DNA of 64,000 nucleotides from Marsupella aquatica (GCA_973895155.1 OZ316894.1:7526234-7590233); one strand, 5' to 3'. Positions 18,880 through 44,649 are shown, counted from the first letter of the stretch. Numbers and translations are program-made. The notes: generated from the sequence alone by a model not told the origin.

Positions 18880-21800
18880 TAGTGGTGGACCTAACCACCC
18901 ATCGCTCCCTCGAGCTCCCTCACCAATCCCAGCAATCTTGCCTAAGTGCCCTTGGTGCCCAAACGCCTAGTACACCAAACTCCTTGAGCAAGCAACTTGT
19001 TACCTCGAGCACCACTAGCGGCAACTCCCATGTACAAAACCACACTTGCTCCCTAACACGACCGTCACTCAACAATCGTCACTGTGTGCACAAGCAACCA
19101 AACACCTTGGTAAGTAACCCATCCGGATCTAGGAACTCCATTCAAGACTAGTGTCTCGATTCAGCTCAATAGATGATGGTAAGTAGGTCAGCAAATAGAA
19201 TCTCCCGGGCCTGCGCAGCCTTGCCATAAGCCAAAGCCATAGTTGACACCCCACTGTTTTTTCATAATAGCCCCTCTATAGGGTGTTTCCGCCTTTGTTT
19301 CCCCACTTCTTATTAGTGGTAGACCAAGCCACCCAGTGCCCTCACCAATCCCAGCACCCACGCCTAAGTGTCCTTGGTGCCCGAACGCCTTCACGAAATA
19401 CCTTAAGCAAGAAACTCAATGCCCCTTGCACCGCTTAGTACGGCTTTCCCATAAGAAGCCGTACTTGCTCCCTAACGTAACCATCGCTCAATGGTCTTCA
19501 CTGTCTGCACAAGCAACCAAGTACTTCGGTAAGTAACCCAATAGGATCTAGATCTCCCCAAGTCTAGCATTCTAACTCAAGCTCAGCAAACGTTGGTAAG
19601 TATGTTAGTGATAGGTACTCCCGATGCCATAACCCAGAACCAGAACTGACACCCACTGTTCGTCTAGAACCGCTCCTTACTTGGGTGCAGTCTGGGTTCC
19701 CCCTCGTACCTATCCATCACCAACTGACCGCCTTGCCCCCAAGAATGCTCATGGCCCAAGTAGCGTAGCTTGTCCTAAAGCTTGTCGCAAGCTTGTCCCA
19801 ACACGTCCGGGAACACGTTGGGACCAGAACGGCCCTGACTCTAGCAACCAACTTCTGGTTCTCGTCTGCTGGTAGCCTAGGAGCCAAGTGCACTTGGAAC
19901 TCATCCTCCATGCCTACTTGGCCTTGCCTCCCCAACGCAAGCTCCCTTGGGAGACTGAATGCGGCTTGGCTGCTGTTTCGGTAGGATTTGGCAAGCTGGT
20001 GAGCTAGCCCCCGCAAACCCCAAAAATCCATGGCACCCCTAGTAGACCCAGCTGAGCTCAGGATGATGTAGTCCTCCTTGAGAGCTTTCCAATGCACTCA
20101 AGAAGTCTTCCGATTCTGTTTGGTGTTTTCTCTTAGTGTTGCGACCGCCGTGGCTCACGACTTCGGCTTGCCCTTAGCCCCCAGGGAGACATCACTCCCC
20201 TCATATATGCTTCTGGAGACCTGCCACCCCCGGACCTACTTTGGTCCCCAAAATTTTGGCCCCCAACCTAGACCCCAACCCGCATGTCTAGGCGCATCAC
20301 CAATTGGCAATGCCCATAACTTTCTAGTTATGTGTCCGTAAGCAAAGTGCCTTAGCCCGTTGTGATCGGGCCGATGCTCATACCTAGGTCCTCAGATCCC
20401 GTTGCCGCCCAAGACCCCCGATCAGCCAAACCTAGATTGGGCCATAACTCGTGCCCCAAGCGTCCATTGCCCATGAAGTGAACTCCATTGGCCTTGGGCC
20501 CAAGAGGAGCTCTAACTCAAGCCCTCAAAACTCAATGTCCGTTTGGGAGTCCGGATGGTCGACCTTGAGCTCCGAGGCCCTTTCCTCTTGACCCAACCAG
20601 CCCTCCACTAGTCTGAGTCTTTAGTGTGTGTCACCAACTTAGCGCCTTGCCTTTGCCAGTGCCACACCCCATTGCCCACAAGTCTCCCCATGCTAAGTCC
20701 TCTCCGGATGGCCGTTCCGGGCCTGTACCATAGGGGAGCTCGTTGTTGGAGTCAGCAACGCTGGAGCTAAGTGTTTAGGTACTCAAGTTCCACAACTTTA
20801 TTTGTCACTAGCTGACCGCCCTATCCCCAACACATGCTCATGGCCAAAATAAGCTAGCTTGTCCCCAAGCTTGTCCTAAACGTAGGGACCAGTTCGACCC
20901 AAACTCTAGCAACCATCTTCAAGGTACCAACTCAACCAAGAGTCTGAGGGCCAAATGCACAAGTTTGGACCTCAACATCCATGCCTACTCTACCATTGCC
21001 TCCCCAACGCAAGCCCGAACGCAAGCTCCATTGGGAATCTGAACGCGGCTTGGCTGTTATCTTGGCAGGATTTGGCAAGCGGGTGAGATAGCTCCCAGAA
21101 ACCTCAAGACCTAAAGGCATCCCTAGACCCAATTAATCTCAGGAGGATTTAGTCAAACTCAAGAGATTTCCAATGCATCCAAGAAGTCTTCCAACATATT
21201 TCATATTGAGAAGATATTGTTGTTTCAGTTTGACTTTTCTCCTTAGTGTCGCGACCGCTGCAACTCTTGACTTGGGCTTGTCTTTGGCCCCTAGAGAGAC
21301 ATCGCTCCCCTCATATACCCGCTCATATATACAAGTTCTGGAAACCTGCCACCCGCAAACTAGCTTTGGTCCCCTATGTTTGGCCGTCAACCTGGTCTCC
21401 AACCCAATCGTATGCCTGGACACACAATGAACTTGCTATGCCCTTAACTTTCTAGCTAGACGTCCGTAAGTGAAGTGCCATAGCCCGTTGTGATTGGTCC
21501 GACCCAATAATCATACCTAGGCCCTCATATGCTCTTGTTAGGCGGGGGTCCCGAACGGCCACACTTGAACAACGTCGTATCTCATGTGCCAAATGTTTGT
21601 TGCGCATGAAGTAAATTCCTTAGCCTTGGGCCCAAGTGGAGTTCTCACTTAAGCCCTTAATTAGAACTCAAAATATTTCTAGGGGTCCGGATGGTCCTTT
21701 CTGAGCCCGGCCCTTTGCATGACCTGACCAGCTCCCACGCTAGTCTAAGTCTTTAGTGCGTGTCATCAACTTAGCATAACTATTGCCCTTGCTAGTGCAA

Positions 21801-21885
21801 TGCTTTGTTGCCCACAGTTAGTCTAGCGTGGGACCATAGAGGAGCTTGGCATTGGAGTCAGTGATGCCAGAGCTAAGTGTTAGGG
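18880..21885. repeat. GC-richer block built of two diverged tandem duplications (about 0.37 kb x2, then about 1.08 kb x2); probable decayed TE
   Basis: 18880-19258 resembles 19314-19660 (ccctcaccaatcccagca...gcctaagtg.ccttggtgccc.aacgcct). 19717-20779 resembles 20804-21885 (tcac.a.ctgaccgcc...atgctcatggcc ... ttggagtcag...gagctaagtgtt). No recognisable protein motif. Confidence 0.75.
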
Positions 21886-24800: not shown

Positions 24801-26837
24801 TACCAAAGCATTTCTTTCTAACTATCTGGCCGTCGACATAGGCATTGTGAACCACTGTCTATTGTAGATGAAATGTATTTGATTTTGGTGTAGTCACTGT
24901 AGTTCCATCCAAAGGTAGTGCCTGAGTGTATAGTATGCAAAGGTAGATGTGCAGGTTACTCAGCAATTTCTTGTGAAGCTCTGTAGGAACTAATATGAGT
25001 TTTTCCGACCTGCCTTTAAGGCAAGCCAGCCAGGAAAGAGTGAGTCAATTGCGTCTGCAGGTTTCAGTTGAACTTTGCTAGCTACAGTTTCATGATCGAT
25101 GTTAACAGGATGCAAAAGCTGCTGTAGAAAAGTTACTCCTCAATCTAACTTGTCTTTTCATGAAGCTCTCATCCCTTAATTTGTAGCCTGCACAATGCAG
25201 TACAGATCCTGCAAGTAAAAGAAATTCCCCTTCTGAATTTAGACCGTGTTAATGTCTGATTAAGCCAATAACTTAGCCAAAAACTTACTCATGGACTGTA
25301 GACATAGATCATTCAGAATTATATTGGTTGTTCATAGTTTCTATTGTAGCCATGGCCTGCCTGGACATATGTACCCACGCTTGCGGTCTGAGTCCGCATG
25401 GAAATAGTGGACGAAACCTCTTCACGGTTCATCAGCACATTGGCTATCATATTCTGGTGTTACCTTGTTAGGGAAACTACTTTTCTAAGTGAGATTTTTA
25501 TCTATATAATTGTTTCTAGTTCAATTTGTTAGACAAGGTGCATCTTTATATCATTAGACTTTATTAGAAATTGTTTTTTGTCTCGTGTTTTTATCAGTAG
25601 TAATCACTAAACCCACTGGAATCTGAACTACCATTCAGATTGAGTCTGACTGAAATCAGAGTAGTAGATCTATCCTAGAACCTGTCGTTAGTTTTATATT
25701 TAATTTTCAAAATTGGCTTTCAAGGGAATGCCAACTTACCCCTCCCCTCTGAATTACTCTTCACAGTTTGTTTTCATTTCATTACTAGGCTTATTAATGG
25801 TTTGAATTGACTAAGGTGTCATTAACTAAAGTCATTATTGAGTATAAGAAAGGCCTGCCCATTGGTTTTCAAAATGGATTCGCTATCTTTTATTGTGTCT
25901 TTTTACCTTGAGATCTGTCTCCAGGTTTGGAGCTTTTGTCCTTTGGCATCACTAGAAGAAACCGGCCCATTCTGAGACCCTGCCTTAAGTGACTCTAATG
26001 AGACCTTGCAAAATTTGTGACTCCTAGGTTTTGGGTGTCATTATAGTTACAAGTTGTGGACTGAGTTTTGGAGAATTCTTGGGAAGTCATTTCTATAACT
26101 ATTGGGGAAGTTGCAACTATAACTAAGTTCAGCCAACAAGAATGAAGTTGTATAAGTGACTCCCTCTACAATAGAGCGTTATATATGTAAGAGAGCCTTA
26201 GGGTTTAACACCACAATCTAACCACATTTGACCCCGCCCAACACATACCATTTAGGATATATCCTAATTTTCTTAGTTGTCAATGGGACTAAAGGAGATG
26301 CCCTCGGGATATTGTGTGAGTACGCAACTCTACAAGGTAAGTAAAGGTCCTTGGTCAATGTCAATGCTAACAGATCTCAAATATATACTCTACATTAGAG
26401 TAGACTGAATTACAATATATGTATGCCACAAGTTTACAAGTGTTACAACATAACAAAATAATCCCAACTAGCTAGGGTCCCACAATGGCATGCATGTAAT
26501 ATTAATTGGACTCATTTTTGTGTCTAAATGGGTACATTTGAAGTTATCTCCTTGGTTATCTCTAACTCTCACATATGCAAGGGCAGGTTATTTTTACTTA
26601 TTGCACGCCATGCCATGCATACATACCGTCATGTACCCCCTCCACACATTGTTCCATCTAGATTCCTTTAATTAAAGGTTCAAAATCACCAAGAACTGGG
26701 AATGCAGCTGGAACCTCCATGTACTTGGCATGTCTACATGTTATAATTAGACATATCTGATAATGGCACCCCACACACTATGCTCATGGAATGAGCATAA
26801 GAACTTGTGACAGTCCTTACCTTAATTAATCAAGCAA

Positions 26838-26921
26838 GGATCTGACGGTCGTAAACTTAATCAAAGGATGATCTGACGGTTGAAAACAAATATGGGCACA
26901 TTAAACCAGGTTTAGGGTTTA
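26838..26921 (+). promoter_or_regulatory. Putative internal promoter of the CACTA element
   Basis: GATCTGACGGT twice (about 26838 and 26870), then TGGGCAC and a telo-box-type TTTAGGGTTT (26911-26920), at the switch from AT-rich subterminal DNA to a GC-richer leader-like region. Confidence 0.4.
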
Positions 26922-29618
26922 ATGGATTCCTTCACGCCAACTCCCATTGCGCCGTGGATTCCTTTGGATTTGCGGACGAGGAGCTGATCGCGCATTCTTT
27001 GCGAGGGAAAAAAGGGGGCAGTTTGTCGATCACTAAGGCTGAAGCTGCATTGACAAATTGCAATCCCGACTGCAATGGGAGTAGTAGGAGGCAAGAAGAG
27101 CGAGTTTAGGGTGTTGCATAGACAAAACAGAATGTGAGTCGTAGGCAACATTCAGCCATTGTATGTGTTTAGCATTGATCATAGGCACTGTGGGAGGCAC
27201 TGCAGGAGGCGTTTGCCACTGCGCAAGGCACTGTAGGAGGCACTTGTTCCTTCAAGCTGGGAGAGTCAATTTGACGTTCAGCTGCAACCTGGGATCGAGA
27301 ACCAGGAGCTTCTCATTGCGGTTTGGTGTGCATTTGGACTGTTCTTGCAAAGTGGGACTCCAGGCCTGGAGACATTGCATTGATCGCCTTTGGATGTACA
27401 TTGCAGTCCGACTAGGAGGCTTTCAAGTGGAGCTGGGTTGGAAGTGAGTTGAAGATTGAGTTGCCATCACATTGCAATAGCGGGGGATTGTTGCTCAGCT
27501 TCACATACTGCTACGGATTACTACGCAGCTTCAGTTTGAGCGGCTTGGTGCTGCATCAGCCCATGTAAGGCTGCAATCCCCTATCTTTGCTATGTGACCT
27601 CGCGGCTGCAAGTTTGGTTGACTTCTTTGTGCTGTGAAGCTGTTTTTGACTCAGGTTCCGGCCAAGTTTCACCAGCGCAAATTTTTCTAAACATGAGTGT
27701 GGGCTACAACTGGTGAGGTGGAAGGGATAAGAAAATGCGCTACCGTCATTGACAACATCTCAACCTTTTACAGTGAGCGCTATTGACATTCGGCCGGCTG
27801 TAAGTGTATTTCAAGCTTGACTTTAACTTGCCATCTGCATGAACCGGCTTGCAATAGATGTTGTAGCTTTTGCTTAGCTGCATTCACCTCCCAAGATGCC
27901 CCGTGACATCCAGGTTTGCACAATGAGATAATAAGGCTGAAATGATAAGGTAGTGATTGCCAATGGATAAAAAGCTTTATGAGAGTTGCTTCAACGTTCA
28001 GCTGCAAACTAGGATTAGGAACCAGGAACTTGTCGCGGCAGTCCAGCTTGTTTACTTGGAGCCGGAGCTGGAGTCAAGTTTCACATGTTTCTTGTTTAGT
28101 GACAGAGTACTTCTGAGAAATGTGACAGCCCCTGTGAGAGCTTTCGGCACCAGTGAGGTAAAGGGTGTTCTTACTCATGCAATAGTCACTTTGACCTTCT
28201 GAGTTTCAGCAAATTGAGTTTCAAGTGCGGGCACTGAGAGTTGACCTGTTTGAGCTGGGGTCACTGAGAGTTGAGCTCTTTGAGCTACGGTTACAGAGAG
28301 TTGAGCTGTTTGAGATGCGGTCTCATAAGTGAACTAGATCCTCCCCCGTGTAAACGTCTAGCATAGTCACATGTCCAAGCTTTGCTTTTGACTCTGAATA
28401 TATTCACTGTCAACCATTGAAGGAGCTACGTGCATGAATTGTCTACTTATTGGGTTGTTTAGGGATTCAATATACAAAAATGACAACTTGAGTAAGGCAG
28501 TCTACGGAGGCGCGAAAGAGTCGCGAGGAGTCGAGTTCAGCTACGGCAGTATTCACTTCAGTTGTCTCAATGTGGTTGGCGTGAGCTGCAGGTGAGCTTA
28601 GCTGTGTGCACATTTCATGTAAGTCAGGTGGTCGGTGTTTTAGGCATTGCGGAACTTGATTGACCACCCCATGGCTAAGGTTTAAGGTGCGGACTACAAC
28701 AAATATGTGTTGTTGCTGAAAGTGTTGGTGGTGAGCGACAACTGGTATTGTTTCAGCTAAAGGGAGCACATTGGAGCTTGTGTATCCATGACCTGCGACC
28801 GATTGCGGTTGCCTGCTGTTACAATTGCCGAATCAATCACGCACCCAATCTTGCGGGCAGACACAACTTTGCGGGAGTGTTGAAGGTTTAGGGTGAGCAA
28901 CAGCGGAGAGCTCATTGCTTGGTGGCAGGGTTGAAGGTGGATGATCGGGCTGCAAGGCCAACCGGGGACTTGTTTTGCATTGAGCGATTGCTGCGGATTG
29001 CTACGCAGCTTCAGTTAGGGCGGCTTGGTGCTACATCGGCACAGGTAAGGCTGCAATACCCTATCGATGCGGACTCACCTCGTGACTGCAAGTATAGTTG
29101 TCTAGGTGATGTATGCATTGCGTGTTTAGGGTCTAGGTGACATCGCTGCTAAGCAAAATTTGTGAGCTGCCTAGGTCCATTGCCGAATGTTGCTTCCTTT
29201 AAATTACCTGGTGCCTGCTGTTACAATCGCCTGCTCAATCATGCACCCAATCGCCTGGATCTCATTTGCCTGGAGCTTCATCCGTCAGATTCAAACTGTT
29301 ATTGCTGCTCTGCCCTTTTGCCATGGGTTGCCGGCCTACCGGATGCTATCAACAGATTAAGAACAAGTCATATCCTAAGTCCCGGTGTTGCAGTGATGTC
29401 CCCGACCCTAAGATGCTTTCCAAACTCATCTTTCTTGTTTCCTGTTGCTGCTGATGTATGTATGTTCTCCCCTATTTTTGCTTACAGATTGGTCTCTCCA
29501 CACTTCTTGCTTGACATGATTGTTTTGCTCCTCCCTGTATCAGAACATGCCTTGTGCCCGGCGGTGGGGTGGGGGGGTGAACAGACGACCTTAAGGTTCA
29601 CTACATTTCTAGGAACTG

Positions 29619-29775
29619 TGCATCTTTCAGCTGATTTTAGCCGCAAGTTCCCTTGCTTTCCCCTGTTTTTGCTAAGATCCCTCCCACTAATCACATGCAT
29701 CTTTCAGCTGATTTTAGCCGCAAGTTCCCTTGCTTTCCCCTGCTTTTGCTAAGATCCCTCCCCACTAATGACATG
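29619..29775 (+). repeat. 77-bp near-perfect tandem duplication inside the CACTA leader region
   Basis: tgcatctttcagctgattttagccgcaagttcccttgctttcccctg.ttttgctaagatccctcccactaat occurs twice. A repeat of about 29 bp (cactgagagttgagctgtttgagct) also lies at 28230-28325. Confidence 0.9.
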
Positions 29776-32320
29776 CATCCTTTACTTTTCTCGGTGGCCC
29801 GTGCGCCTGCCTTCCTACTTTCGTTCTTATGGACTCTCCTTAGGTTTTCATTCACCTGGTTTTGGACTTTTTGCTCCGGTGGAATCTGTCTTGACAACTT
29901 GTGTTTGTTCTAATTGTTAATATCTCAAGAGGGTCGTCAACTAAGCTGAAAGGAGTCAAAGCTAACTACAAGCTAGCAAAATAATACAGAGAATGCTCCC
30001 AAGTCGAGTCAGGAGGAAGTTACTAAAACTAGACCTTCACAACTCTCGAAACTGGAAAGTGAAATTCAGCGTGAGACACGTAGCTGAAGGCCACAAGGAT
30101 AACTATATGGCCACGCTGTCCCCCATTCAAGTCCAAAGTCCTCTTCAGATTGTCTGAACTCCTATTGAATGTATTGAATAATTATTTCATCACAGAAATT
30201 TTCAGAACAAACACGGAAGCACCAGGGGGCTGAGGATTAGGTATTGAGGCTGAAGACATTGAGGTCATAAACTAGGTGTGGTTCGGGTGACAATGTTAGC
30301 AACTGATGCTTCTTCAGGGGAACTTCCCATGTGTAGTTTATCCACACATGATTGACTTTGGTTCTTGCTGTTTTTCTTTTGGTGTACTCTTGAGTTTGGT
30401 GTCACTCTATCCTTTCCTGTAGCCTCGAAATAGGAACACACCTGCTTAGTGGTCCCCAATCGCCCAATGATTTATAATGACTGTGTCTAGGTGATGTATG
30501 CATTGCGTGTTCATTCCAGAAGAATGAATATGTACACTTTGCACAAACCTGGACAGATTTTGAATGTTATTTATCTGAGTTTCTGTTTGTGAGCTCTGAC
30601 TTGGAGCCTTAACATTTGTGTTTCTGTGGGGCTGAGCAGAGTTTGTTCAGTCTAGAAGCTGCTGTACTGAAGTGATCAGCCTCCGGCTTGGAGGTGAATC
30701 TTCAATTTTTTGTGGATCCGAGTGACTTCTGTCCAACTGAGTTTTGCTTTGTCGGGACGATTGTGTTTGGCTAAGATGCTAGATTGTGGCTTGTCTTCTT
30801 GCTTCCAGCTTGTGTATTTTCAATTAATAGAAGTTGGGAACGAAGTGATAATTGAATTTCCTTATATTAAGCATCTTCACCTAGAAACTCAATACATAAA
30901 CTCCAGGATTCCCTCGGGACATAAAATGAGCCAAATTGTCTCAAAATTGGGAACCTGCACCCGCACTACTCAAACAATTGTGTTGGGCTTGGTGGCCTTG
31001 TAAGTCTTCTTTAGCTTTCGCAATGGAGGTTGAATCTTGCAGTACGTCAAGGGGAACTTGATCTTTGAATCATGGAACTGCTTGGTACTTTCTCGCTTGC
31101 ACAGAGAGACAGGGACTATCGTAGTCTTCATGATCTGGATGCAAGGGAACCGAACTCTATGACAAGAAGCCATCTCATCATACATCTGCTCTGCAGCTCC
31201 GTTTCTTGTGGTATCACAATATTCCTTGTACATGTTGTGATAACCTGTACGACTCTGATACGTGGACCCAGATACCGAAGTTCTTAATTGTGGTGGGCTT
31301 CTTTTTGAAGATCTGGTAGACACATTATTCAGCATTTGCTAACTTCGAAACTAGAAGGGTAACACATTAAACAACAGAGAAACTCACAACATCCTCCTTT
31401 GGTCCTTCAGAGTCTGTACTTTGATTCTGAAGTTTGACTGAGTTTTTGTTTACTAAAAGAATGTGACTGTGTAAGAGTTCCGTTTGGCAGTGGATTGGTT
31501 GAAGCACTTCATGCTAGTGTGTTGTCCACAGCTCTTCAACCAGCTTTCGTCTTCCTTGTCTTTCACCACTTACGATGACATCAATTCAGCTAAGACCATA
31601 GAAGGTTCCAAAGCATCTAACTTGTAAAATCGCATTCTGTTACATCAAGGACTAAGGTGTTGGGTGCCAAAGGAGACATCACAACAAACACGCTGAAAAG
31701 ACTTCAGGACTGGGTTCAACAAGGTAGTGAAGGTGCTTAGAGCCATAGTAAGTATGCATTCTGTATCTTTCTCTATTGATGTGAGCTTGTGCATAATGGG
31801 AGTTGTAGTTGGCAAGAGTTCCAAATATGAATAGATCCAGAAGTATGTGATCATGTACTTGCTCTATAAAGTTCTGAAGATATAAGCATTTTCTGTTAGA
31901 CCAGGCAACTTGGGAGTTGGTAAGTGTCACCTGCATCTGAGGGGCTACACCGGGGCATCAGTGGAGGTTCACTTGCACAACACGACAACCAGTGAATTTT
32001 CTCTCTGCTGCAACCTGCAAGGTGAGACTTTCGGTCTTTCTGGATGAAAAAACAGGAGTTTAATATGATTGATATACATGTCCGTCGAGAATATGGGTTT
32101 ATCACCAAGCTCTTTGTCTTAGGAAACTCATAAACTCAGAATCAAATATGTACTATGCACGTTTCATGCTATGTGTATACTATGACCTGTAGTTGGAACC
32201 AAGACAATGAGTGGGAACTGATTAGTTTAGGTGGTTGCTGTTGGCGAGGCAAGTCGACCTCCTGCTCACCTTGCTCATCAAAGGACGTGAACAGAGGACA
32301 TCACAACGAAAGCAACACTT

Positions 32321-32770
32321 ATGGTGAGGACCCGCAACGCTGAACATGTGCGACTTGCACGCAAGGCAGAGATGTTGCGCCTTGAGTATGTCAGACTTGG
32401 GATCCTTCCAGCCCAGTCTGCATGGTACTTTGAGTACCCTGTTGTTTCTAGGAACAACTACAGCCGGCCTCTACCTGCTTCAGTACCCTTCCCGACATCC
32501 TTGGTATTTGTGTCTCTTGTACATGACCCGCCACAAATTAGGTGCCAAGGGTGTGTACACAGTTGCCAATATGACTGTCCTGCCTGTAGGGCTTCTGGCC
32601 CAGAATTGGATGACCGTTCTCTTGGATGCCGATTTTTGCACAGAGCACAATGTATCATCTGGAACCACTCGCCATCCTGCAGTGTGCCTGGTGATGTCAC
32701 TTGTCCTGCCCTCCCAGACCCCACCACCGGTGACTTTGGTGTCTACACATGTTTGGATCACATGCTCTAG
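32321..32770 (+). CDS. CACTA cargo ORF1: 149-aa Cys/His-rich protein, divergent PHD-like zinc finger
   Basis: ATG-initiated intact ORF. Pattern CQGC...C...CPAC...GCRFLHRAQC...GVYTCLDH resembles an atypical PHD ending in CxxH. Confidence 0.5.
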   Translation: MVRTRNAEHVRLARKAEMLRLEYVRLGILPAQSAWYFEYPVVSRNNYSRPLPASVPFPTSLVFVSLVHDPPQIRCQGCVHSCQYDCPACRASGPELDDRSLGCRFLHRAQCIIWNHSPSCSVPGDVTCPALPDPTTGDFGVYTCLDHML

Positions 32771-33385
32771 AGGACCACTTGTCACACCGCATGCACAGAC
32801 CAGATACCATTGACCTATAGCTTAACACTCTGACTTCAACACAGAGGATATTTACTTAAAATTTTGATGTATGAGCAATTTTGGGTCCAGGGTTTAGGGT
32901 CAACAGTACATAACTTATATCCTATTATGCCTGCACTAAGCAAAATATCCTAATTTAAGAGGCTAGCAAACTCGCATAAAAGTCTCTATTGAAAGACTGC
33001 TTTCATGACTGCTTTAACCTGGTGAACATTGCAACGTTGAATGAATTAATGGGCCATGTGATAATATGCAAAATGATTTATGCCTCACTTATTTGTCTCA
33101 GCCACTATCATAACCTATTTAGGATGTATAAATTTCAACCCTTATGACACTGCTTCATACCAATCCTCTTCGAAGAATGCCTGTTTTACATGTCACGACT
33201 ATTGTATGTGATTCAAATGCATGAAATGTTGTTGCAGATCTCCTTTGGTGAATCATAGCCACAATTAAAATTGAGGTGTTGGTGGAGAAATTGTATTAGG
33301 GGATCAGTTTTGTGTGTGGGCTCAACATACCAAAAGTATGTGTGCTCTGCATCCTTGTGTGGCCATTCCAATTCATTGCAGTAGC

Positions 33386-33528
33386 AAATGCCTTTGTACC
33401 TTAAATGCTAAATATATTTTACTTTCTGTGCAGTCTGCTAAATTGTAGAGTCTATCTAAATGCCTTTGTACCTTAAATGCTAAATATATATTACTTTCTG
33501 TGCAGTCTGCTAAATTGTAGAGTCTATC
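33386..33528 (+). repeat. Tandem duplication of about 72 bp immediately upstream of the PHD cargo ORF
   Basis: aaatgcctttgtaccttaaatgctaaatata..ttactttctgtgcagtctgctaaattgtagagtctatct occurs twice, followed by an acceptor-like tgcgcag (ending 33538) just before the ATG at 33541. Confidence 0.9.
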
Positions 33529-33540
33529 TCATGCGCAGGC

Positions 33541-34221
33541 ATGGCACGGCCTAAAATTCAAGCCAAAAAGCGTGTGACAGAGGTGAGAAACACAGGTGTA
33601 CTTGGGGCAGATGCTACTAACTTCTCTGCAAGTCAGATTTTCCAGAAGGCAGCTCATTGTTGTGCCATTTGTGACGATGGTGGGGGCCTGGTCATTTGTG
33701 AGGGCCCTTGCATGAGGCATTTCCACCTCAACCCGGAGTCTGACCTTGCTGCAGAAAACAACTGTCCAGGGGTGGGCCTCCCGTCAACACACCAGGGAGA
33801 CTGGATGTGCACTGATTGTTTGGAGAAGCAGGCTAAGTGTGCACAGTGTGGGAAGTTGGGGTCCTATGAGGGCTCTGTTGATGCTGCAGCAAATGTTAGG
33901 AAATGTCCAGACCGTTTTTGTGTGAGATTTTTCTGTTTTGAGTGTTTGCCTGCTCATGCCACAGCTTGCCCACTTCATAGGTGCAAGGCATGTGGTGAGC
34001 ATGATGATGACTACTGGACTGACATAGTCCACTGTGCTAGGTGTCCCACTATGTGGCACTATCATTGCCTGAAAGATCATCAAGCAGAGGGTTATGCTTG
34101 TGACAGAGAAATCTATGATCACTCTGCACATGGTGTTGATCGATGGATATTTTATTGTCATCGCCATGCCATTGATCCTACCTCGCGCACTCCTGTGAGA
34201 GATCACATATCTTGGCTGTGA
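33541..34221 (+). CDS. CACTA cargo ORF2: stand-alone EDM2/NSD-type triple PHD-finger protein (226 aa)
   Basis: CAICDDGGGLVICEGPCMRHFH...CTDC...CAQCGKLGS...CPDRFCVRFFCFEC...CPLHRCKAC...CARCPTMWHYHCL...FYCHRHAIDPTSRTPVRDHI. The order of ligands and the terminal TPVRDH match the composite PHD of plant EDM2 as recalled. No other EDM2 domain is present. Confidence 0.85.
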   Translation: MARPKIQAKKRVTEVRNTGVLGADATNFSASQIFQKAAHCCAICDDGGGLVICEGPCMRHFHLNPESDLAAENNCPGVGLPSTHQGDWMCTDCLEKQAKCAQCGKLGSYEGSVDAAANVRKCPDRFCVRFFCFECLPAHATACPLHRCKACGEHDDDYWTDIVHCARCPTMWHYHCLKDHQAEGYACDREIYDHSAHGVDRWIFYCHRHAIDPTSRTPVRDHISWL

Positions 34222-34813
34222 AGCTGAACATTGTACATGCACAGTGCACCTGATGTGGATGTACTATTTTTTGAGATTGCAGAGATTCCAATTTTGAAAA
34301 GGAGTTGGGTAGGCGAGTTTATATAGGCAGCACTTATCTTGTGCTCTGGCGTCAGTGGCTGGGTACATGCCTATACAAACTTATCCTTACAAGCCTTCTT
34401 GGAAGTATTTAGGCTGAGTGGTCATTTTCATAAACACTTTCATCACACTGCTAAATTAAAACAGGACTTCTAAGTTGTAAGCGTATAAATTATCAGGCAT
34501 GCAATTAATCAAATTGCCCTATAAGTTTGTCATTGAATGTATCCTCCTTTACAACAAAATATGTATGTGCCATGACAAGTTGGTTGCACTTCATTTCACC
34601 ACGGATATGGATTTTGTAGTATATATTCAAACAATGTCCTGCATCCGTGCAGGTGCCTAGTACGTATTGTTCACATATCCCTTGTACCTATCAAAATCGG
34701 ACCTGAGCACCAGTGGGCCAGATCAACTCAAAAAGCAGGAATTTTGTTGTCCTTGTATTGTCAGGTGAACCCATTCTTCCAAAATTCACTGTCATCACGT
34801 AGGGTGTGTGTAC

Positions 34814-35686
34814 ATGGAGCCTGGTAAACGTAGAAAGTGTGACCACCCAGCAGTGTTTACAGGGGTCAGAGCGATTTTGGTCCATGGCCAGCATGGGTTG
34901 ACCAAAGTGCATTGGCCAACTGTACAGAAACGATTCTCTGAGCTCCATGGCACTGTAGTTCAGGACATCACTCCAGAGACTACACATGTTGTTGCAGGGA
35001 CATGGCTATCAGTGATAAAGAAGTGGTCATGGTCCTACATGAATTCTGCAATTACTAAGCAAGGCCTAAAAGTAGTTGAGGCCTCTTGGATCATAGATTC
35101 CATAGCACATAAGATTGTACAGGATACTGAGCAATATGAGTTGTGGGAGGATGAAGAAGCTATTGCATCAGCTTGGGCTGAACAAGAAGTCTGGGAAGCA
35201 AAGGCACGGCTTGCTGATCTCCAATATGGACCTGTACTCAACAAAGGACAGAGCTCTACAAGGCTGAAGAGTATGTTGGCTGAGGAGACGAAGCAACCAA
35301 CCCCCATTCTGAAAGGGCTGAGCATGGTATTTGTGGAGGCGGGAATTGGAGAGGTTAAGTGCAAAGTGTACAAGTCCACAGTGCTTGACCTAGGTGGGAC
35401 AGTGGAGGAGAATATAACAGAGGACACCACTCATGTCATTACTAAGTCATATCCCAAAGCCTGCCGCAAGTTTGGGAAGGGAGACATTCGCTTTTATGTC
35501 ATGTCCCATAATGTGTTTGTGGTTTCATATGCTTGGCTTGTGGAATCAGTAGCAGCTGGGAAGCGTCAAAACCCAATGGACTATGATCTTTTTGAGGCCT
35601 GGCCACGGAAGGGTCAGGATCCTTACAGAGAGGACTATGAGACAACAAGTGAGGAATGGGTCATTAGCGATTCTGAATCAGAGTGA
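34814..35686 (+). CDS. CACTA cargo ORF3: tandem BRCT-domain protein (290 aa), Pol lambda-like BRCT
   Basis: Two repeats with BRCT signatures (F/LxG...GTV...TTHVV/I...VV..SW/AW..DS/ES....Y.L). The second has VExG, KFGK and YxWLxxSxxxG...NxxxYxL, as in the plant Pol lambda N-terminal BRCT as recalled. Acidic C-terminal tail; acceptor-like cacgtag ends at 34802. Confidence 0.85.
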   Translation: MEPGKRRKCDHPAVFTGVRAILVHGQHGLTKVHWPTVQKRFSELHGTVVQDITPETTHVVAGTWLSVIKKWSWSYMNSAITKQGLKVVEASWIIDSIAHKIVQDTEQYELWEDEEAIASAWAEQEVWEAKARLADLQYGPVLNKGQSSTRLKSMLAEETKQPTPILKGLSMVFVEAGIGEVKCKVYKSTVLDLGGTVEENITEDTTHVITKSYPKACRKFGKGDIRFYVMSHNVFVVSYAWLVESVAAGKRQNPMDYDLFEAWPRKGQDPYREDYETTSEEWVISDSESE

Positions 35687-36119
35687 GGAGTAGTAGCATC
35701 AGTTTGGACACAAGTTTTTTTGTATAAATTAGATCATTGAAATAAATGTGATCTTTGAACTAATGTACCTTGTTATGGTTGGTGGCAGTTGGGCTTATTT
35801 TACTGTTGGCGGATTGTTGTTTCCTGCTGCCTGGGGGTGTCACTGTAAACGTACATGCAGAGGCGGTACATTTGAGGACAGCGGAGGAGGTGGTGACACC
35901 CTCCAACATTTAGAAATTTTGTGTCATTCACTTGACAATAGGTACACTACTTGCGAACCTGTTTTTTTCTTTTGGGGTGGTTTAGGGTTTGTGAGAATTT
36001 AGTACACGTTATGTTAACTCTTTTGGCAGATACAGTCAGGGATATATGGAACACAAATACCACCATTAGGCATCCTTGTTCACTGCTGTCCATGACTGCA
36101 GAGCTCCTAGCCTGTTACA

Positions 36120-39100
36120 ATGCACCCTGGTCACCACCCTCCCCAGACCCAGCCCAGGGCACAGGCACTGCCTTTGCATCATCCCACAAGGATATCACGC
36201 CATGATAATAAGCTTTGGCAGCGTGAAAGGTTACGAACCAGACTTTCAGGAGCCAGTAGGATGAGATGTCCTTGTGCAATCTGCCAAGGATCCCGTACCA
36301 GGGGTCTGAATGAGGTTTGGCGGCATATCGCGGTTCATGGAAGAGATCCACGACATCGAGTTTGGAATGATCCTGCAGAGGAAGATTCTTCCGACGAGGA
36401 GTGGAGGTTAGAATTTGATGCTGCCAATGCTGCAAGACGGGCAAGTGAGGTTCTGCCTGGTGCATTTGAAAATGTTGTAGCTGGTCTCTGTGGGTTGTCA
36501 GCTCTCCAACGGGATGGTGCTCAGGCAGCACCACGTGACGAAGGAATTCATGTGGAAGAGATGGTGAGAGACATCTTCCAAGACTTGGATGCATTTCATG
36601 ATGGGCTGGACAATGAAGAGGATACGGCTGCAGATGCAAGTGTGCCCCCTGTCGAAGAGCCTCTTGATGAGTTTGAGATAGGGCAGGAAACCCCTGGGCA
36701 TGATGGGATGTTTGGCTCTCCCCTGCAAATACAGGAAGGCAGGAAGTCTTTGTACCCCGGTAGCAAATGTTCTAAACTGGGATTTGTCATCATGTTCCTG
36801 AACATTTGCGGCAACCACAATGTCCCCAACGTTTTGGTTTCTGAGTTGTTGGCATTCTTGCGAACAACTGTGCTACCAGATGGTAATATTTTGCCCAAGA
36901 ACATGTACGAGGCAAAAAGATGCATATCTAATCTTGGATTGAACTATGATTCGATCCATGCCTGTCCTGATGGGCATGTTCTTTTCAGAAAGGAGTATAA
37001 AGAATCGTTGACATGCCCTAAGTGTGGGAAGCACAGGTATCGGAACTCAGGAAAGTCTATGGTTCCCGCCAAGGTACTTCGTCATTTTCCACTCATTCCC
37101 AGACTTCAGCGGATGTTCAGAAGCCGTGCCATCTCGGAGATGATGACTTGGGCAACTGACAAGAAAAGTGATGATGGGCTACAACGACATGCTGCAGATT
37201 CAAGGCAATGGAAACTCATAGATGAGATGTATCCCGAATTTGCTGCTGAGCCGAGGAATGTCAGACTTGGGCTGTCATTGGATGGGGTAAACCCATTTGG
37301 AGACAAGAACAACAAATTTTCATGCTGGCCTGTAACTATTTTGAATTATAACCTTCCTCCTTGGATGACTACAAAGCGATTTTTTGTTCTGATGGTCCTA
37401 CTGATACCAGGGCCAGACAGTGCTGTATCTGCCAACATAGATGTGTTTCTGGCTCCCCTAGTGGAGGAATTGAGAAAGCTTTGGGAGGAAGGAGTTCTCA
37501 CATATGATGTCCTACAGAGGCTTGGGAGGTTAAACCCATTCATCCTTAGAGCCATTGTCATTCTGACTATAGCTGACTACCCAGCCCATGGGATGATATC
37601 AGGCCAAACAACAAAAGGATATTGTGCTTGTACTATCTGTGGGCGCAATGTCACCAGTGAGTACTCCAGAGCCCTGCAGAAAGTGATATACATGGGCCAT
37701 CGTCGTTTTCTGAAGACAGATCACCCTTACAGAGAAAGACAGGCACTGATTGCACACTTTGGCAATGAGATTGAGCAACGTGGACCCCCGGCACGAGTGA
37801 CCAAAGAGGAGATCAGGCAGTGGGGAGCACTGAGGGATGACTATATCAAACGAGGGGGCAGGGAAGATGGAGTGAGTGATCCAATAAAGCGATATGGTGT
37901 AAAAAGACTGAGCATATTGGACTTGGAGCTCAAGTACTGGAGGGTAAGCCTCTTGGAGTTGATGCTAATTGGGATACATGTTTTGGTTCAGAGCATGTGC
38001 ATTCATTTCGAAGAGAGAGACTAAACTTGAGGCATTTCCTGACGCTTTTGCATTGCAACGATGCAGGAGTTTGAGCCAAGCAAACATAACATTGATGTTA
38101 TGCACATTGAAAAGAATATTTGTGAGAGTCTACTCAGATTCTTGTGTGGAGAGAAAGACACTGGTTCAGTGAGATTGGATCTTGAACAGAGGGGAATGAA
38201 ACCCCATCTTTGGTTGAGGCCACATGCCCACAGAGCTGATGTGCTCTTGAAGTACCAAGCGCCCTATGTTCTGACAGACACAGAGTGGGAACTATTTGTG
38301 CAGAGGTTGAGTTCTTTGAAGGTTCCTTCAAACTATGGCAGTGCTTTCAAGAAGCATATCATGACTAGAAAGCTTGGTAGTATGAAAAGCCATGACTACC
38401 ATATGTTGATGCAACAGGTGTTGCCTTTATGCCTGAGGGGCCTGTTGCAGAAGCCTGTTCGTACTGTGATCATGCGACTCAGTGATGTGTTTCATCGTAT
38501 TTGTGTGAAGGTTTGGGATGAAACACACTTCCCACAACTGACAGAAGATGTCGCTCAGGTGCTGTGTGACCTGGAGATTTATTTTCCTCCCGCATTTTTT
38601 GATGTCATGACCCACCTACTTGTCCATGTTGTGGAAGAGCTACACCAATTTGGGCCTGTGAGTGCTCGTTGGTTGTACCCTTTGGAACGGTACATGAAGC
38701 TACTCAAAGGTCACGTGAGAACATATTACAAACCTGAAGCAAGCATGGCTAAAGGTTACATCAAGGATGAGACTCTGGGATTTCTGACCGAATACATAGC
38801 ACAATATGAGCATGTGAAGACCAGGGTGTGGAATTCTGATGAGGAGGAAGGGGTGGTAGGTGAAGTACTGGAAGGGGCTGCAACCACAAAGAACCTGACC
38901 ATATCTATGAGAGACTTGGCACATGACTTTGTATTGCACAACACTGTGGTGATGGAACCCTGGATACAGTGAGTGCATACATGTGCTATAATCCAGTTCA
39001 TGAGCTTAAATGTTGTGTTCGTGTGGTTTTCTCCTTCAGCCTGTTCATGTTTACCCAAGCTAATGCTGTGTGGTTGTTCGTTCAGGGAGTATGAGTCATT

Positions 39101-39851
39101 GAAGGCGGCCCATCCCACTGCAGGAACAACTTTTCCAGGTTTCATGGAGTGGATCAGAGTGGCAATTAGAGAGCATCACGAGACCCACCCAGACATGGAT
39201 GCAGATGTTTACCTACTGTCTAATGCCCCTAGCCTGAAAGTGAAGACTTACAAACGGATGAGAGCATATGGGAATCACTTCCGAGTGAAGGATGGTGACA
39301 GTGCCTACAGGGTGACGAATGACTGCGGGCTCATCACTGTATTTGAGCAACAGAGCCACAATCACGACAGGGCCTGGATGGAGATGGGATATGTGGGAGA
39401 ATTAGTTGACATATGGGCTCTGGACTATGGGGCGGTGTCCAGTCCTGTGATTCTTATGAAAGGTTCATGGGTGCGGCAGGATTGGCTTGGTAACAGGGCT
39501 ACCATGAAGAGAGACAACGACGGTTTCTTGCTGGCCAATTTCAGAGGGAAATTGCCCGAATGGTCTGAGCCATTTGTGTTTCCTAGTCAGGTGGAGCAAG
39601 CTTTCTTCCTGGATGTGGAAGACTCCCCAGGTTGGCGTGTAGTGTGTCATAAACAGGCCAGGCAACGCCGGATGGAAGGATCAAACCTTGAGTTTCATTT
39701 ACACTCTCATAGTGCCTTTGATCGTCGGCGTTCAGACCAAGTGCCTGTAGTTCATGATAGCGGGGACTTCATTCCTGTGACAAGGGTAGATGCATTTGCT
39801 GAAGGAGGCGAATTCAGAGATGCAGATGCCAACAGTGTGCCTGTGCCATGA
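36120..39851 (+). CDS. CACTA transposase Tnp2/TnpD (transposase-associated, Transposase_21, DUF4218 and DUF4216-type domains), about 1,163 aa
   Basis: Exons 36120-37943, 38067-38968 and 39086-39851 (GT-AG, in phase; true start may be a later ATG). Motifs: CPCAIC...HIAVHG, IHACPDG...CPKCG..RY, RNVRLGLSLDGVNPF, DYPA, DVMHIEKN, MKSHDYH, FPPAFFDVMTHL..H, WLYPLERYM, EPFVFPSQVEQAFF. Catalytic D-D-E candidates are intact and there are no stops. Confidence 0.95.
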
Positions 39852-40007
39852 GTAATGTGAATTGTTTGCATAGACATTAGTGAGGGGAAGGATGTGTAAT
39901 AAAGTAATTCTGAAGCAACACAGATGTATGGATGGATGCCTGGTGATTGTGGTTGCATTGTGTTATACGGGGTGACCATAGATGACATGTTTTTGTGGTC
40001 CAGTAGG

Positions 40008-43000
40008 ATGGAACAGAGTGACACAGAGATGTGTGAGTATGAAAGGAAAGCTATGGAACAACGAGCATACGTGAAAGCCAAAATCGCAGAACTGGATCTG
40101 GTAAAGGATGTGGCTGAATTGTAAGGGAACGATTCTCAACTACACCCCTCCGCTGAGTTTGTGTGACATGAATAGTTCAATGTGGCACTGAAATTGTGAC
40201 TGTATTCTCATATTGGAATGTCGCAGAGCCACAGCATTTTCAAAGAAACAAAAGGAGTACGCAAGAAGGGTGACCAGCACTATCTCTGGGCCTGTGCGTC
40301 GGAGTGACAGGTTGAGCAAGAAGGTCGTACCTACAATGGCAGAATGTGGAGATGACATTGATGCTGCACAGGTGGGTGCAGACACTAGACAAGAAGATGC
40401 AGATGATGAGTATTTTCCAGAGGAAATGGATGAGGATGGGGGTTATGAAGATGAATACATTGCAGAGCAGCCCCAAAAGAAACATGTAAGTAGTTTTCCC
40501 AACAAGGTTTTGAGTTAAAAACTCTTGTTTAGAGGTTTCATATGTTCAGTACTACACATATGTACCTTGCTTAGTTCCTGACATTGTAGTTGGTGATGTG
40601 ATGCAGCGTCCTGCCAGTTCTGTTTTGCCTTCGAAGCCTGTGCATGCACCATACCAGCAGGGGGGGCTGACCTCTGATCAAGGTTGGCGAGGTGGTAGTA
40701 GTGGTAGATCCCAGGCTGGTGCCCAATACTATGGCAGGGGGCAAGCTCTAGGTTATGCCCGTGGTAGAGGCAGAGCAGGTCCAAACCCACAATCTCGTGG
40801 GTATGGACGTCCACCTCAACCGTGGGGATGTGAGTATATATCTATATGCCAGTTCTTTGTGAAGGCATGGCACTCCTGAATTTCAGACTGCATATCAATT
40901 TTTGACATTGTTTGGGATGTATTGGATTCAGACAACATGAAATTCTGTCCACCTGCCATTGCATGCAGATTCTGCCCAACCTGATTGGGCAAATGCTAGT
41001 AATGATCAGTTCCAATGTCCACAAGGACAGACATGGGTTGAACCAGGTTGGGAGGATGGTGGTGGGTCGTGGAATGAACAAGGTTGGGAAGGTGGTGAAG
41101 GTAATTGGCAGGGATATCAAAATTCAGTACCTACAAACGCTGGAAGAGGAGCAGGTAATGTCTGATCTTGTCAGCAATGGAAGAACTCATTATATGTGGA
41201 GTCCATTCACGTGGGGGGGACTCTGCACATGTATAATGATAGAAAATGTATGTGTGCAGGTTGGACAGTCGAACCATCGACTCAAGTATTCACTAATGCC
41301 CCTATGCAGATGCAGCACGGAAGGGGGACAGGTATGTCGGTGAATGTTCAGTTGTTTTCCTACAGTTTGTACTTAGTTTTCAGTACATATGTTTGCACAC
41401 ACATACCTAGAAAGTGACATCATCCGGCCCCTGTACTAGGCTGGACAGGTGGTCCAGGGTCGCAACAATTTCAGAGTGCAGTCCCTGCACAGGCATCTAC
41501 AGGCAAAGCTACAGGTATGTATGTTTGAAGAATTTTTCTTGAAGTGAAGCATTGAATGTTGCCGTCATCCATTCTGCTATATGTAGTTCTCAAGCATGAA
41601 TGGCATTGTATTTTCCCAGGTGGCTTCAGAACCCCAGGTAGGGTGAATGAAGGGGTGGCCAATACAACGCCCAGTACTACCGAGAGCAGTGCACGAGGGG
41701 AGGTGACAAAGAAAGGGAACGTAAAGTTGAATGAGAGACAATGGGTGGATGCTGAGTGTCCTCGCAAGAACCGATGGCATGCTGATTTGAAAGCTGAAGT
41801 ATTGCGTTGGTTAGATGTGAGTGTTATTAATTTTAAAAAACAGCATCCAAAAGATTGGAAGACTGTATGTGAAAATGTTGCTGCCAAATGGAATTATGTG
41901 GGCAGTGATGATGGCGTGGACATAGGTTGCCTAGAGAGTACAGCAGGTAAAATTATCAAGCAAGAGAGGTGGAGAATGCATAAGGCTTGGAAGGAAGGTG
42001 GGGAGAAGCCAGATATGCCTCCACCAGCCAGTTGTGATGATAAAGTGTGGGCAAGGTTAGTAGCTTATTTTGTAACAGATGCTTCAAAAAAGAAGAGTTC
42101 ACAGATGACCGAGGCCAGGTTGAGTGTTCAGAACCCTAATCTGACAGGAAGGACCGGCACTGCACCGACAGCTAAACGTTTGGTAAGAATGAATGGCCTA
42201 GCTATGTAATTTATGCTACACTATGTACTATTTTTTAGTGTAAACCCATACATGTAAACTTTGTTTTTTAGTGTACGTTCCCTGAATATTGATCGATAAC
42301 TTGTGTTTGCCATGCATGTGCAGAAAGCCCAATTGGGGCAAAGCCCTTCAAAAGAAGAGTTGAGGGCTGAAATTGTGAACACCCGGGCTCAAGAGGGTGC
42401 ATCTGAATCCTCCAAGCATGTAAGTTATATGAGTTCTGATTGGTAATTGAATGACCTGCGTTGAATTTCAGGTGTACACTGTATATAACATTGATTGTGC
42501 ATATATTGCCCAACATTTCATATGGAGTGATTGAACCTATACCCCTGTGTCATGTAGGGAGGTGGATCTTCACTTACAGAGATAAGTGGTCGTTTGAAGG
42601 CTGTCGAAACATGTCTTCCAGAGATCAATGAACGTTTGAATTCATTGACTGACTTGTTCCATGTGAACTTCAAGACATTAATGGAAGCTGTTGTGTCGGT
42701 GAGAGATAAAATTGATTCCAATTCTGCAGGAGTTCCACCATCACCACTTGAGGTGGCAAAGTCGATGCACTCTTCTGGCATGCCAACGACATGTAGGCTT
42801 GAAGGTAAGGCCTTTACAACTGTGTGGGATATGATTATTAAATGTATAGTTTGAATTGACATTGTTTGTTGAATGTGTTATTTTCAGTAACATATATTGT
42901 GGTTGTTGTGTCCATAGAGAATAAGACAGGTGCTACAGAGAAGAAGTATGAGAACCTGGCAAATACTCGCTGTAATTTAGAGGCAACAAAGTTGCAGTCT

Positions 43001-43714
43001 GTACAAGCAACTTGTTTGACAGAGGGCAGTCAACCATGTTTGGATGAGGATGACATTGGCAAGGGAGTGGATGATATCAATGTTGGGGCAAATGAGGATA
43101 TCAGCAAGCATGACAATGATACCATTGAGCCAGATTCATGCTATGTAGATCTTGACTCCATTGCAGAGATAAATGATTTGCAGAATGTATCATTCTCAAT
43201 GACAGGTGTGCCTCTTGTTGAGATAAATCCAACCAAAGAGTTAGTTGGTATGACACTCCCAGGTGATGAACCTGCTACTGTGACAGTCCTAACAGAGGAA
43301 CCTACTGAGCCTAGCTTCACTACTGTGAAGAGAGGAAGCATGCGCACACGAAGCAAGTCTGCTGGTGGGAGCAGAGCCACGTCAAAGGTTTCATACAAAC
43401 CTCCAAGAACAGTGCTGGCAGAAAGATCTAAGGTGGAAGTGGGGAAAGCACCTAATGCTGAGGGACAAAGTGGCTTGTTAGCTGTTGATGAGAGTGGAAC
43501 ACGAGTAGGATTTGCCAGAGTGCAGGTTGGTTCCACAACGTTCCATGGCAAGAGGATTCCCCCAGGTTATTCAGTAGTGTTAGTCACATTACTAGTGAAA
43601 CCTAAAGCTGTCCTTCCCATTCCAAACACAAATGATGATCCTCCTCAAAAGACACTTGGAGATGCTGCAGGTTCTTTGGTATTATGGCCAAGCAAGTTCA
43701 TAGAGGATCCATAA
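40008..43714 (+). CDS. CACTA ORF2 (TnpA-like / Transposase_24-type) protein, about 876 aa, with a GW/RG-rich segment
   Basis: In-phase GT-AG exons: 40008-40120, 40227-40485, 40607-40829, 40969-41154, 41260-41331, 41440-41514, 41620-42182, 42324-42419, 42558-42804, 42918-43714. Motifs: CEYERKAMEQR, WARLVAYF...KSSQMTEAR....NLTGRTG, and C-terminal FHGKRIPPGYSVV...TLGDAAGSLVLWP typical of CACTA ORF2. Confidence 0.8.
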
Positions 43715-44214
43715 CAATGTCATGCCATTATTTGTTTGTAGTGTGAGTCATGTTATGTAGATTTTAGATGTCAAGAAGCAGTACAAGAATCATGTCCTCT
43801 TGGAGATTCATAGTATCATGCATGTGCTTTCAGTTATCTCATCCTACAGTCATCAATTATGAGTTCCTGTTTTGTCTAAATTACATTGATCACATTGTAA
43901 ACTATTCCATTGGAATTCAAATGATCTTCATTTTTTAGCAAGATTGTGATTGTGTTTAATTCTTATGAATGTTTTATGTAGGATCTGCTTATATGATGCT
44001 TTGTTTCATGTGGATGTCATTCATGCTATGTTCATTTCTTGTATTCAATGTGTTATATTTCTAAAGTTAGAACATCAGGTTTCTATGTATTGTAATGTCG
44101 AGTGCTCTCTCTTCTTATGAACTGTCCCTCTGTGTTCATTAGTCATGGTTATAACTTGCATGTGAACCTTATTAGTTATAAACATGAGTATATAGAGTCC
44201 CAAATGGTTCTGTT

Positions 44215-44545
44215 GTGTGACGCGGGCCAGGGTCTCCATTGGTCTCTCCTGTGACACTAAATAGTCACACGCTAGTTGTTGTTGAATGCGGGTAAGTCAT
44301 GTATGTGACTTACGATGTGACTCGCTGAAGTCATATTGCAGTCACGTCGAAACAAGGCTAGACTCCACAATAAAGTCACAGATCAGTCACAAATGGGTAT
44401 CAAGCAAGTTGCAAAGCCCAGTATCAATAGTGACTTCCATTTTTTGGTCTCAACTTTTGCAACTCCAAGGGTCACAGCGTGGGTCAAGTCACGTTGAGTC
44501 ACAATGAAGTCACATGAGCCAAAATGAGTCATATATTGCGGTCTC
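44215..44545. repeat. Right subterminal repeat cluster of the CACTA element (AGTCAC/GTGACT motifs in both orientations)
   Basis: More than ten (a)gtcac/gtgac(t)-like motifs within about 330 bp of the right TIR, with sparser counterparts at 25985-26165. En/Spm subterminal repeats are known TnpA-binding sites. Confidence 0.75.
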
Positions 44546-44649
44546 AGTTCACCTCGGATTCTTCTAGTGCATTGTGTCTTATATTTTTGCAAGCTAAACA
44601 ATTATTTATTAGACAATGACATGGGAAGAGGGCTTTAAAGATGATTATG

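Follow-up and report, generated by a model that had tools for sequence, protein, structure and literature searches.

A CACTA transposon from Marsupella aquatica with three co-oriented accessory genes that look selected

Ends and transposition genes of the element

The subject of this study is a CACTA transposon of 18.6 kb, predicted to be autonomous, that lies at 25950..44569 in a stretch of 64,000 nucleotides from Marsupella aquatica (GCA_973895155.1 OZ316894.1:7526234-7590233; the whole stretch is called the window below). It carries five genes, all co-oriented on the plus strand: three cargo open reading frames (ORF1, ORF2 and ORF3), a Tnp2/TnpD transposase gene and a TnpA-like gene. An earlier note, made from the sequence alone, had described the cargo as a kit of binding modules aimed at three layers of host defence, namely heterochromatin with dimethylated lysine 9 of histone H3 (H3K9me2), Argonaute silencing and double-strand-break repair.

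The left terminal inverted repeat (TIR), CACTAGAAGAA, occupies 25950..25960 (plus strand, 11 bp) and is followed by subterminal GTGACT repeats, and the right TIR at 44559..44569 (minus strand) comes just after a dense subterminal cluster of the same motif. Identical CAT target-site duplications (TSDs) flank the element at 25947..25949 and 44570..44572. In a survey of the 8,074 pairs of CACT[AG] starts and ends that are spaced 200-40,000 bases apart anywhere in the window, no match is longer than that of the CACTAGAAGAA pair at 25950 and 44569, and of the 18 pairs that match over at least 9 bp this pair alone has a 3-bp TSD. The matching TIRs and the CAT duplication reported in the earlier note are thus confirmed. 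GTGACT occurs three times at the left end and ten times at the right end, and its density in the window is highest in the 500-bp bin at the right end. The element therefore has the TIRs, the 3-bp TSD, the subterminal clusters, the Tnp2/TnpD transposase and the TnpA-like second gene that define CACTA (En/Spm) transposons. Telo-box-like TAGGGTT motifs lie at 26199 and 26913, near the left end, and at 35983, just upstream of Tnp2, and are possibly promoter marks.

The transposase gene spans 36120..39851 (plus strand) in three predicted exons (36120-37943, 38067-38968 and 39086-39851) and encodes 1,163 amino acids (aa) without internal stop once the two predicted GT-AG introns are removed. The protein matches the Pfam families Transposase_21 (2e-70), DUF4218, DUF4216 and Transpos_assoc, and in the open 1,163-aa model we take D388, D486 and E815 to be the acidic triad. 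The TnpA-like gene (40336..43714, plus strand) has nine predicted exons, and removal of its eight predicted GT-AG introns of 105-141 bases leaves 802 residues without internal stop; its match to Transposase_24 (E 1.5e-4) is under the Pfam cut-off. Both splice models are predictions from sequence. The earlier description of the two genes as uninterrupted is right in that they read open after predicted splicing, but not to the letter, since Tnp2 needs two introns for this and TnpA eight.

Residues 76-212 of the TnpA model are rich in glycine and tryptophan, with GW five times and WG once, and ten tryptophans fall within residues 71-220. The richness in both residues, which the earlier note had pointed out, is real, but the dipeptide count is not above that of composition-preserving shuffles (p 0.19-0.26). 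The Argonaute arm of the proposed kit rests on these six dipeptides in a predicted splice model, and the segment is at most a candidate Argonaute hook. Arabidopsis TnpA is sequence-specific, demethylates the termini and leaves histone H3 lysine 9 methylation (H3K9me) in place (bioRxiv 10.64898/2026.08.24.746577).

The cargo genes and their family

ORF1 (32321..32770), ORF2 (33541..34221) and ORF3 (34814..35686) are confirmed at the positions first given for them, on the plus strand and each with its own ATG and stop. Each consists of a single coding exon, and the label intron-free holds for the coding parts only; acceptor-like sites lie just ahead of the starts of ORF2, ORF3 and Tnp2. All three have full-length stand-alone relatives with 37-82% identity, found in searches that covered near-length proteins. 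The element also contains two near-perfect, recent tandem duplications, at 33386-33529 (72 bp) and at 29619-29782 (about 77 bp), the former of which copies an acceptor-like site just ahead of the ORF2 start.

ORF2 encodes a stand-alone triple-PHD protein of EDM2/NSD type with 226 aa and a basic N-terminal tail. Its three NSD-type PHD matches are all under the Pfam cut-off, and it matches proteins of EDM2 architecture with E up to 1e-33, so that the earlier assignment as an EDM2-type triple PHD stands. A profile search returned 564 proteins at E <=0.001, short stand-alone proteins at the top and then long RFD-PHD proteins of EDM2 architecture, and the matches in the PDB are NSD2/3 and AIRE. ORF2 contains tandem atypical PHD fingers of NSD type with intact zinc ligands: cysteine is invariant at 18 of 22 positions, as against 34 of 204 for all other residues. 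Five full-length stand-alone relatives have 82, 75, 53, 37 and 38% identity, and start, length and C-terminal end are kept down to 37% identity.

EDM2 and EDM2-like proteins have the same atypical PHD array with conserved zinc ligands (PMC7529245, PMC10241880, PMC9292364). ORF2 differs from them in being the PHD module only, without the N-terminal RFD and the long C-terminal region of EDM2; it ends one residue past the last conserved motif, and a basic tail replaces the acidic residues before PHD1. A quick tree was built from 70 of 146 rows, namely every qualifying short protein and the first 45 of the long proteins; in it, a separate clade of 13 rows unites the stand-alone proteins, with a support of 98 in the Shimodaira-Hasegawa-like approximate likelihood ratio test (SH-aLRT). 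Other EDM2-like proteins have the PHD array near the C-terminus of 620-770 aa (P0017, P0020, P0022, P0028 and P0033) or are PHD-only with 320-390 aa (P0036, P0044, P0061 and P0097); the latter could be an independent capture. When metagenomes were scanned with the PHD alignment, 11 of 221 candidate stretches proved to be loci of this kind, which were taken as host-type genes by their identity (26-46%).

The change before PHD1 bears on what ORF2 could bind. Of the long proteins, 68 of 69 have an acidic residue among the five positions that lead up to the first PHD1 cysteine, as do 5 of 5 mid-length proteins, against 0 of 16 ORF2-family rows (18 were hand-picked, two of which had no match to the pattern). 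All 16 family rows retain the acidic residue that follows the third cysteine. We presume that these two acidic positions contact Lys4 and Arg2 of H3 in fingers of AIRE type. In a related finger, H3 binding is driven by acidic residues (PMC5663869), and EDM2 prefers H3K9me2 (PMC7529245). Because the residue that precedes PHD1 is missing in the ORF2 family, this preference should not be taken for granted in ORF2, and the earlier view that the protein is aimed at H3K9me2 is doubtful.

ORF3 encodes 290 aa with two BRCT repeats and an acidic tail (Pfam BRCT 3e-13). Both BRCT (50.1 bits) and BRCT_2 (43.9 bits) exceed the Pfam cut-offs, which bears out the tandem BRCT reading, and there are two full-length relatives with 60% and 54% identity. 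The repeats score 45 bits against each other, whereas no PDB chain scores above 21 bits, which suggests the internal duplication of one single BRCT. Neighbours in the Atlas are mostly BRCT clusters, all below 0.9. The linker between the repeats is about 50 aa long, and phosphate-pocket residues are not obvious by eye. The structure prediction has a mean predicted local distance difference test score (pLDDT) of only 34. A scan of viral contigs with the BRCT alignment gave 0 of 128. The repeat may be akin to the BRCT at the N-terminus of plant DNA polymerase lambda, which is a candidate donor. The BRCT of the plant polymerase binds XRCC4 and Lig4, and the enzyme has been implicated in the repair of excision sites (PMC4444747).

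ORF1 encodes a Cys/His protein of 149 aa that belongs to no known family, with no match in Pfam or the Atlas. Two full-length relatives share 56% and 55% identity with it, and 7 of its 10 cysteines are invariant across the three sequences, which makes metal binding plausible. The predicted structure (pLDDT 59) combines a helix with a beta-sheet, and its best fold match has Z 4.1; the model is of low confidence and may hide a known fold. By eye, the invariant Cys/His spacing differs from that of PHD fingers. The earlier label PHD-like thus finds no PHD signal in Pfam, Atlas or fold search, the last of these with the low-confidence model. The statement that each cargo is only a binding module fits the PHD and BRCT proteins, which have no catalytic domains.

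Relatives of the element were surveyed in 11 public sequencing runs from 9 studies that contain part of 32000-36200. Five of them, from organisms A, B and C, contain at least half of the words, and one may be the source sample; runs with a small share (X7-X11) were left out for habitat or range. In run X3, contigs with exact matches to the left arm have depths of 538-1,189, compared with 26-38 for flank contigs, and in run X2 the values are 1,323-1,597 and 68; contig depth is not copy number, and runs that are retrieved by a region cover that region by choice. Since left-arm depth is so far above flank depth, the data suggest that the element exists as some tens of near-identical copies. Summed depth is far higher from about 32 kb to the right end, of the same order across cargo, Tnp2 and TnpA, and thin in the outer left arm. 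Judged by depth, the cassette forms part of the core of the family, and it is the outer left arm that varies; as depth is rough and the runs are region-selected, we use it solely for this statement.

Organism D has diverged high-depth matches on ORF2, ORF3 and Tnp2 and no such matches on the spacers. In organisms C and D, near-identical pieces overlap and span the end of ORF3, the spacer and the start of Tnp2. Joints of low depth in DNA-type contigs (32463-33285, 32874-33600 and 40928-43155) indicate internally deleted derivatives of the family. No empty site occurs among the 15 joints listed, beyond which there are 92 further ones.

The three cargo ORFs look like selected genes. All 12 indels listed, out of 25, fall outside the cargo ORFs, which make up 56% of the stretch concerned. 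Among 32 contig pieces listed (296 further ones exist, and 4 mixed pieces were set aside), 18 coding pieces have 140 substitutions and 3 gap letters, and 10 non-coding pieces have 81 substitutions and 53 gap letters. Among the pieces listed that have at least four substitutions, gaps occur in 1 of 10 that are coding and in 6 of 6 that are non-coding (Fisher p 0.0009). The ratio of observed to expected CpG is 0.24-0.39 for the cargo, 0.37 for Tnp2 and 0.28 for TnpA, and 0.69 for the flanking gene region, so that the cargo resembles the transposition genes in this respect and not the flank. Like the separate ORF2 clade and the matches in organism D, this would point to an old association of the cargo with the element. 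Relatives, family depth and the position of the indels all agree with the earlier view that the cargo is unlike decayed Pack fragments, and they indicate that it is not private to one copy.

The element also carries decayed cargo, which the earlier note had overlooked. A captured 3' exon fragment of RPL18a (eL20) lies at 30970..31312 on the minus strand (Pfam Ribosomal_L18A 3.4e-18), with an acceptor-like CAG ahead of it; it is frameshifted by a 1-base difference at 31264 from other copies, and the frameshift occurs in a minority of copies. Pack elements are typically non-autonomous, with decaying cargo. By its sequence features, the fragment is passive cargo of the ordinary Pack type and fits Pack-CACTA capture (PMC13317346), unlike the three ORFs, which are conserved. 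As an antisense exon, it could yield antisense RNA against the ribosomal protein gene.

Possible roles of the cassette

Together, the data suggest a model to which we give an even chance: the three conserved single-exon genes of this multi-copy CACTA element would encode non-catalytic adaptors that are tethered to their own family and work with its TnpA and transposase. As in Arabidopsis Spm, TnpA would attach to the GTGACT clusters and switch the element on. ORF2, with a specificity changed from that of EDM2, would tether the complex of TnpA and transposase to nucleosomes, either so that the element stays open to transcription or for the choice of insertion sites. ORF3 would make contact with end-joining factors, where the donor is broken or at the 3-nt insertion gaps, and bias the repair there; ORF1 would probably be a metal-binding partner. 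Action that is restricted to the family is preferred over genome-wide decoys, because selection on the element easily keeps only a family-specific benefit. Since Arabidopsis TnpA leaves H3K9me in place, there is room for a helper on the histone side.

Several points weigh against this model and against the selection that it presupposes. The synonymous excess is weak (6 of 13 coding variants listed, with 22-27% expected; p 0.05-0.11). Three diverged pieces that overlap ORF1 carry 10, 19 and 22 gap letters, the places of which are not stated. The relatives with 37-60% identity come from contigs of 1-3 kb, and their link to CACTA is conjectural. The runs were retrieved with the cargo region as query, several of the indels are on one contig, and the variants are those listed. 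The tree that sets the ORF2 clade apart is a quick search in which a long-branch join was flagged, and the PDB and Atlas searches with ORF3 gave weak, generic BRCT matches without a named donor.

An unlikely alternative, which follows the earlier note, is that the products act as diffusible decoys: ORF2 would compete with EDM2 and other readers of the H3 tail, ORF3 would titrate end-joining factors and leave donor sites to be repaired from the sister chromatid, with a gain in copy number, and TnpA would absorb Argonaute through its GW segment. The PHD and BRCT proteins are indeed binding modules that have been stripped of catalytic and flanking domains, and the ten tryptophans of the TnpA segment would suit such a role, but the GW/WG count does not exceed composition. 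The motif M-[A/T]-R-x-K, found in the first 30 residues of ORF2 and of 9 of 19 short relatives, and at residue 1 of 2 of 120 long proteins, resembles the N-terminus of histone H3, and histone mimicry is documented for other proteins. The count is uneven, however, since a methionine inside the sequence was accepted for short proteins, while long ones were scored at their first residue; M-[A/T]-R also opens 12 of the 120 long proteins, and the tail may be no more than a basic localisation tail. A genome-wide decoy would moreover benefit rival elements to the detriment of the host, and systems of broad anti-silencing are said to be rare (PMC12973397), which makes free decoys less favoured. In its boldest form, the idea is a three-layer kit in which ORF2 is an EDM2-derived protein that has exchanged its acidic H3-reading patch for a tail that mimics H3, ORF3 a duplicated BRCT of polymerase lambda type and TnpA an Argonaute hook. 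We think this improbable; if true, it would be a kit built from stripped host modules, in which ORF3 redirects end-joining at excision breaks and raises copy number. None of the papers listed in our literature search dealt with a transposon-encoded histone mimic or with GW Argonaute motifs encoded by transposons.

About as improbable as that kit is a role in read-through, in which ORF2, still EDM2-like, would bring in the ASI1/AIPP1 complex for RNA processing. Transcription of the long five-gene element, or of a host gene in which it has landed, would then pass through heterochromatin without premature polyadenylation. EDM2, IBM2 and AIPP1 suppress cryptic polyadenylation sites in heterochromatic transposable elements (PMC7529245, PMC10241880, PMC9292364), and five co-oriented genes with acceptor-like sites ahead of several starts would fit such a need. 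Yet ORF2 has neither the RFD and C-terminal regions of EDM2 nor the acidic residues before PHD1 (0 of 16 as against 68 of 69), and ORF1 and ORF3 would be left unexplained.

It is somewhat less probable again that the cargo consists of passive captured fragments, neutral or serving as camouflage against silencing, which look intact merely through a recent expansion of the family. The frameshifted RPL18a piece in the same element is such cargo, captured sequence is usually pseudogenised and camouflage has been proposed (PMC13317346), and the weak synonymous test fits as well. What speaks against it is that start, length and C-terminal end are the same even in relatives with 37% identity, that indels avoid the ORFs and that zinc ligands are preferentially conserved. 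It is hardly credible that the cargo consists of domesticated genes, or of host genes which TIR-like ends happen to enclose, as in a case that the earlier note named as its refutation: short stand-alone PHD proteins of EDM2 type (255-386 aa) do exist outside the ORF2 clade, but the TIR pair is the sole one of at least 9 bp with a TSD among the 8,074 pairs, cargo cover is far above that of the flanks and continuous with Tnp2, and pieces from organisms C and D run from the end of ORF3 through the spacer into Tnp2.

The closest parallel to the cassette is found in red algae, where the Plavaka elements of the EnSpm superfamily have three long-conserved accessory genes, PAG1-3, beside the transposase (bioRxiv 10.1101/2025.02.11.637652). 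As in the CACTA cargo, one of them is of unknown function and the others are chromatin-related. PAG2 and PAG3 are predicted enzymes (methylase/SET and 2OG oxygenase), whereas the CACTA cargo consists of reader or adaptor modules (PHD, BRCT), and the element described here is, unlike Plavaka, a Tnp2/TnpA element of a land plant with a repair-type module. With En/Spm it shares the CACTA ends, the 3-bp TSD, the head-to-tail arrangement of TnpD and TnpA and the clustered subterminal motifs (PMC13547354; bioRxiv 10.64898/2026.08.24.746577). It differs in that the descriptions of En/Spm consulted in these two sources mention no extra genes upstream of TnpD; in the main text of PMC13547354, neither PHD nor BRCT occurs.

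In MULE elements, VANC of VANDAL and Ulp1 of Kaonashi are likewise captured host domains that selection has kept in autonomous DNA transposons and for which an anti-silencing role is proposed (PMC13317346). They belong to another superfamily, VANC is a tested sequence-specific DNA binder, and the CACTA cargo has no homology to VANC that is visible in Pfam. Transposons that carry SET and TET domains have also been noted (PMC12730594). In a survey of 1,007 plant genomes, PHD is entered for MULEs alone, and the 775 CACTA clusters have a single RTT107_BRCT_5 match (PMC12973397 Table S6). We found no CACTA element with an EDM2-type PHD gene or a twin BRCT gene in a literature search that did not extend to Repbase Reports and subscription journals. 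The novelty claimed for the combination therefore holds in part: the version with PHD and BRCT was not found in print in this search, but PAG1-3 are a precedent for a chromatin-related cassette of three genes in an element of the EnSpm superfamily.

Tested counter-measures of plant transposons are few (VANC, TnpA), and the accessory cassettes described for EnSpm encode enzymes. In a conserved cassette of reader modules, separate genes that can each be deleted would become available for two questions, namely how cut-and-paste elements cope with the H3K9me chromatin that TnpA leaves behind, and whether they gain copies by steering how their own breaks are repaired. ORF1 and the stand-alone PHD clade add two unannotated protein families, and ORF2 would be a natural variant for mapping the histone specificity of EDM2.

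Left arm and other features of the window

The variable left arm (25961..31900) has a mosaic of short internal duplications and much thinner contig cover than the core, and is apparently subfamily-specific. Apart from RPL18a, there is no credible Pfam match in the left-arm ORFs that were scanned, nor in another 35, out of 65 listed, that lie in the left arm and from there to ORF1, and no Rfam family is found in the window.

Outside the element, exons at about 5400-14000 (plus strand) resemble a Polycomb methyltransferase gene of CLF/E(z) type, with no Pfam match for the two ORFs scanned. Within this region, 8154-9926 is an unusually long low-complexity frame of 590 aa with an internal duplication of 177 bp. 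A tandem duplication of about 1 kb with 68% identity lies at 19717-21816 in a GC-rich, skewed region. The ORF at 52788-53207 (plus strand) has a stretch like a signal peptide and ends in what we take to be a CLE-like dodecapeptide; it has no Pfam match. Further to the right, proline-rich frames from about 57900 precede an open reverse transcriptase ORF of 829 aa at 58921-61410 (plus strand; RVT_1 2.5e-10), which belongs to a non-LTR (long terminal repeat) retroelement and looks intact.

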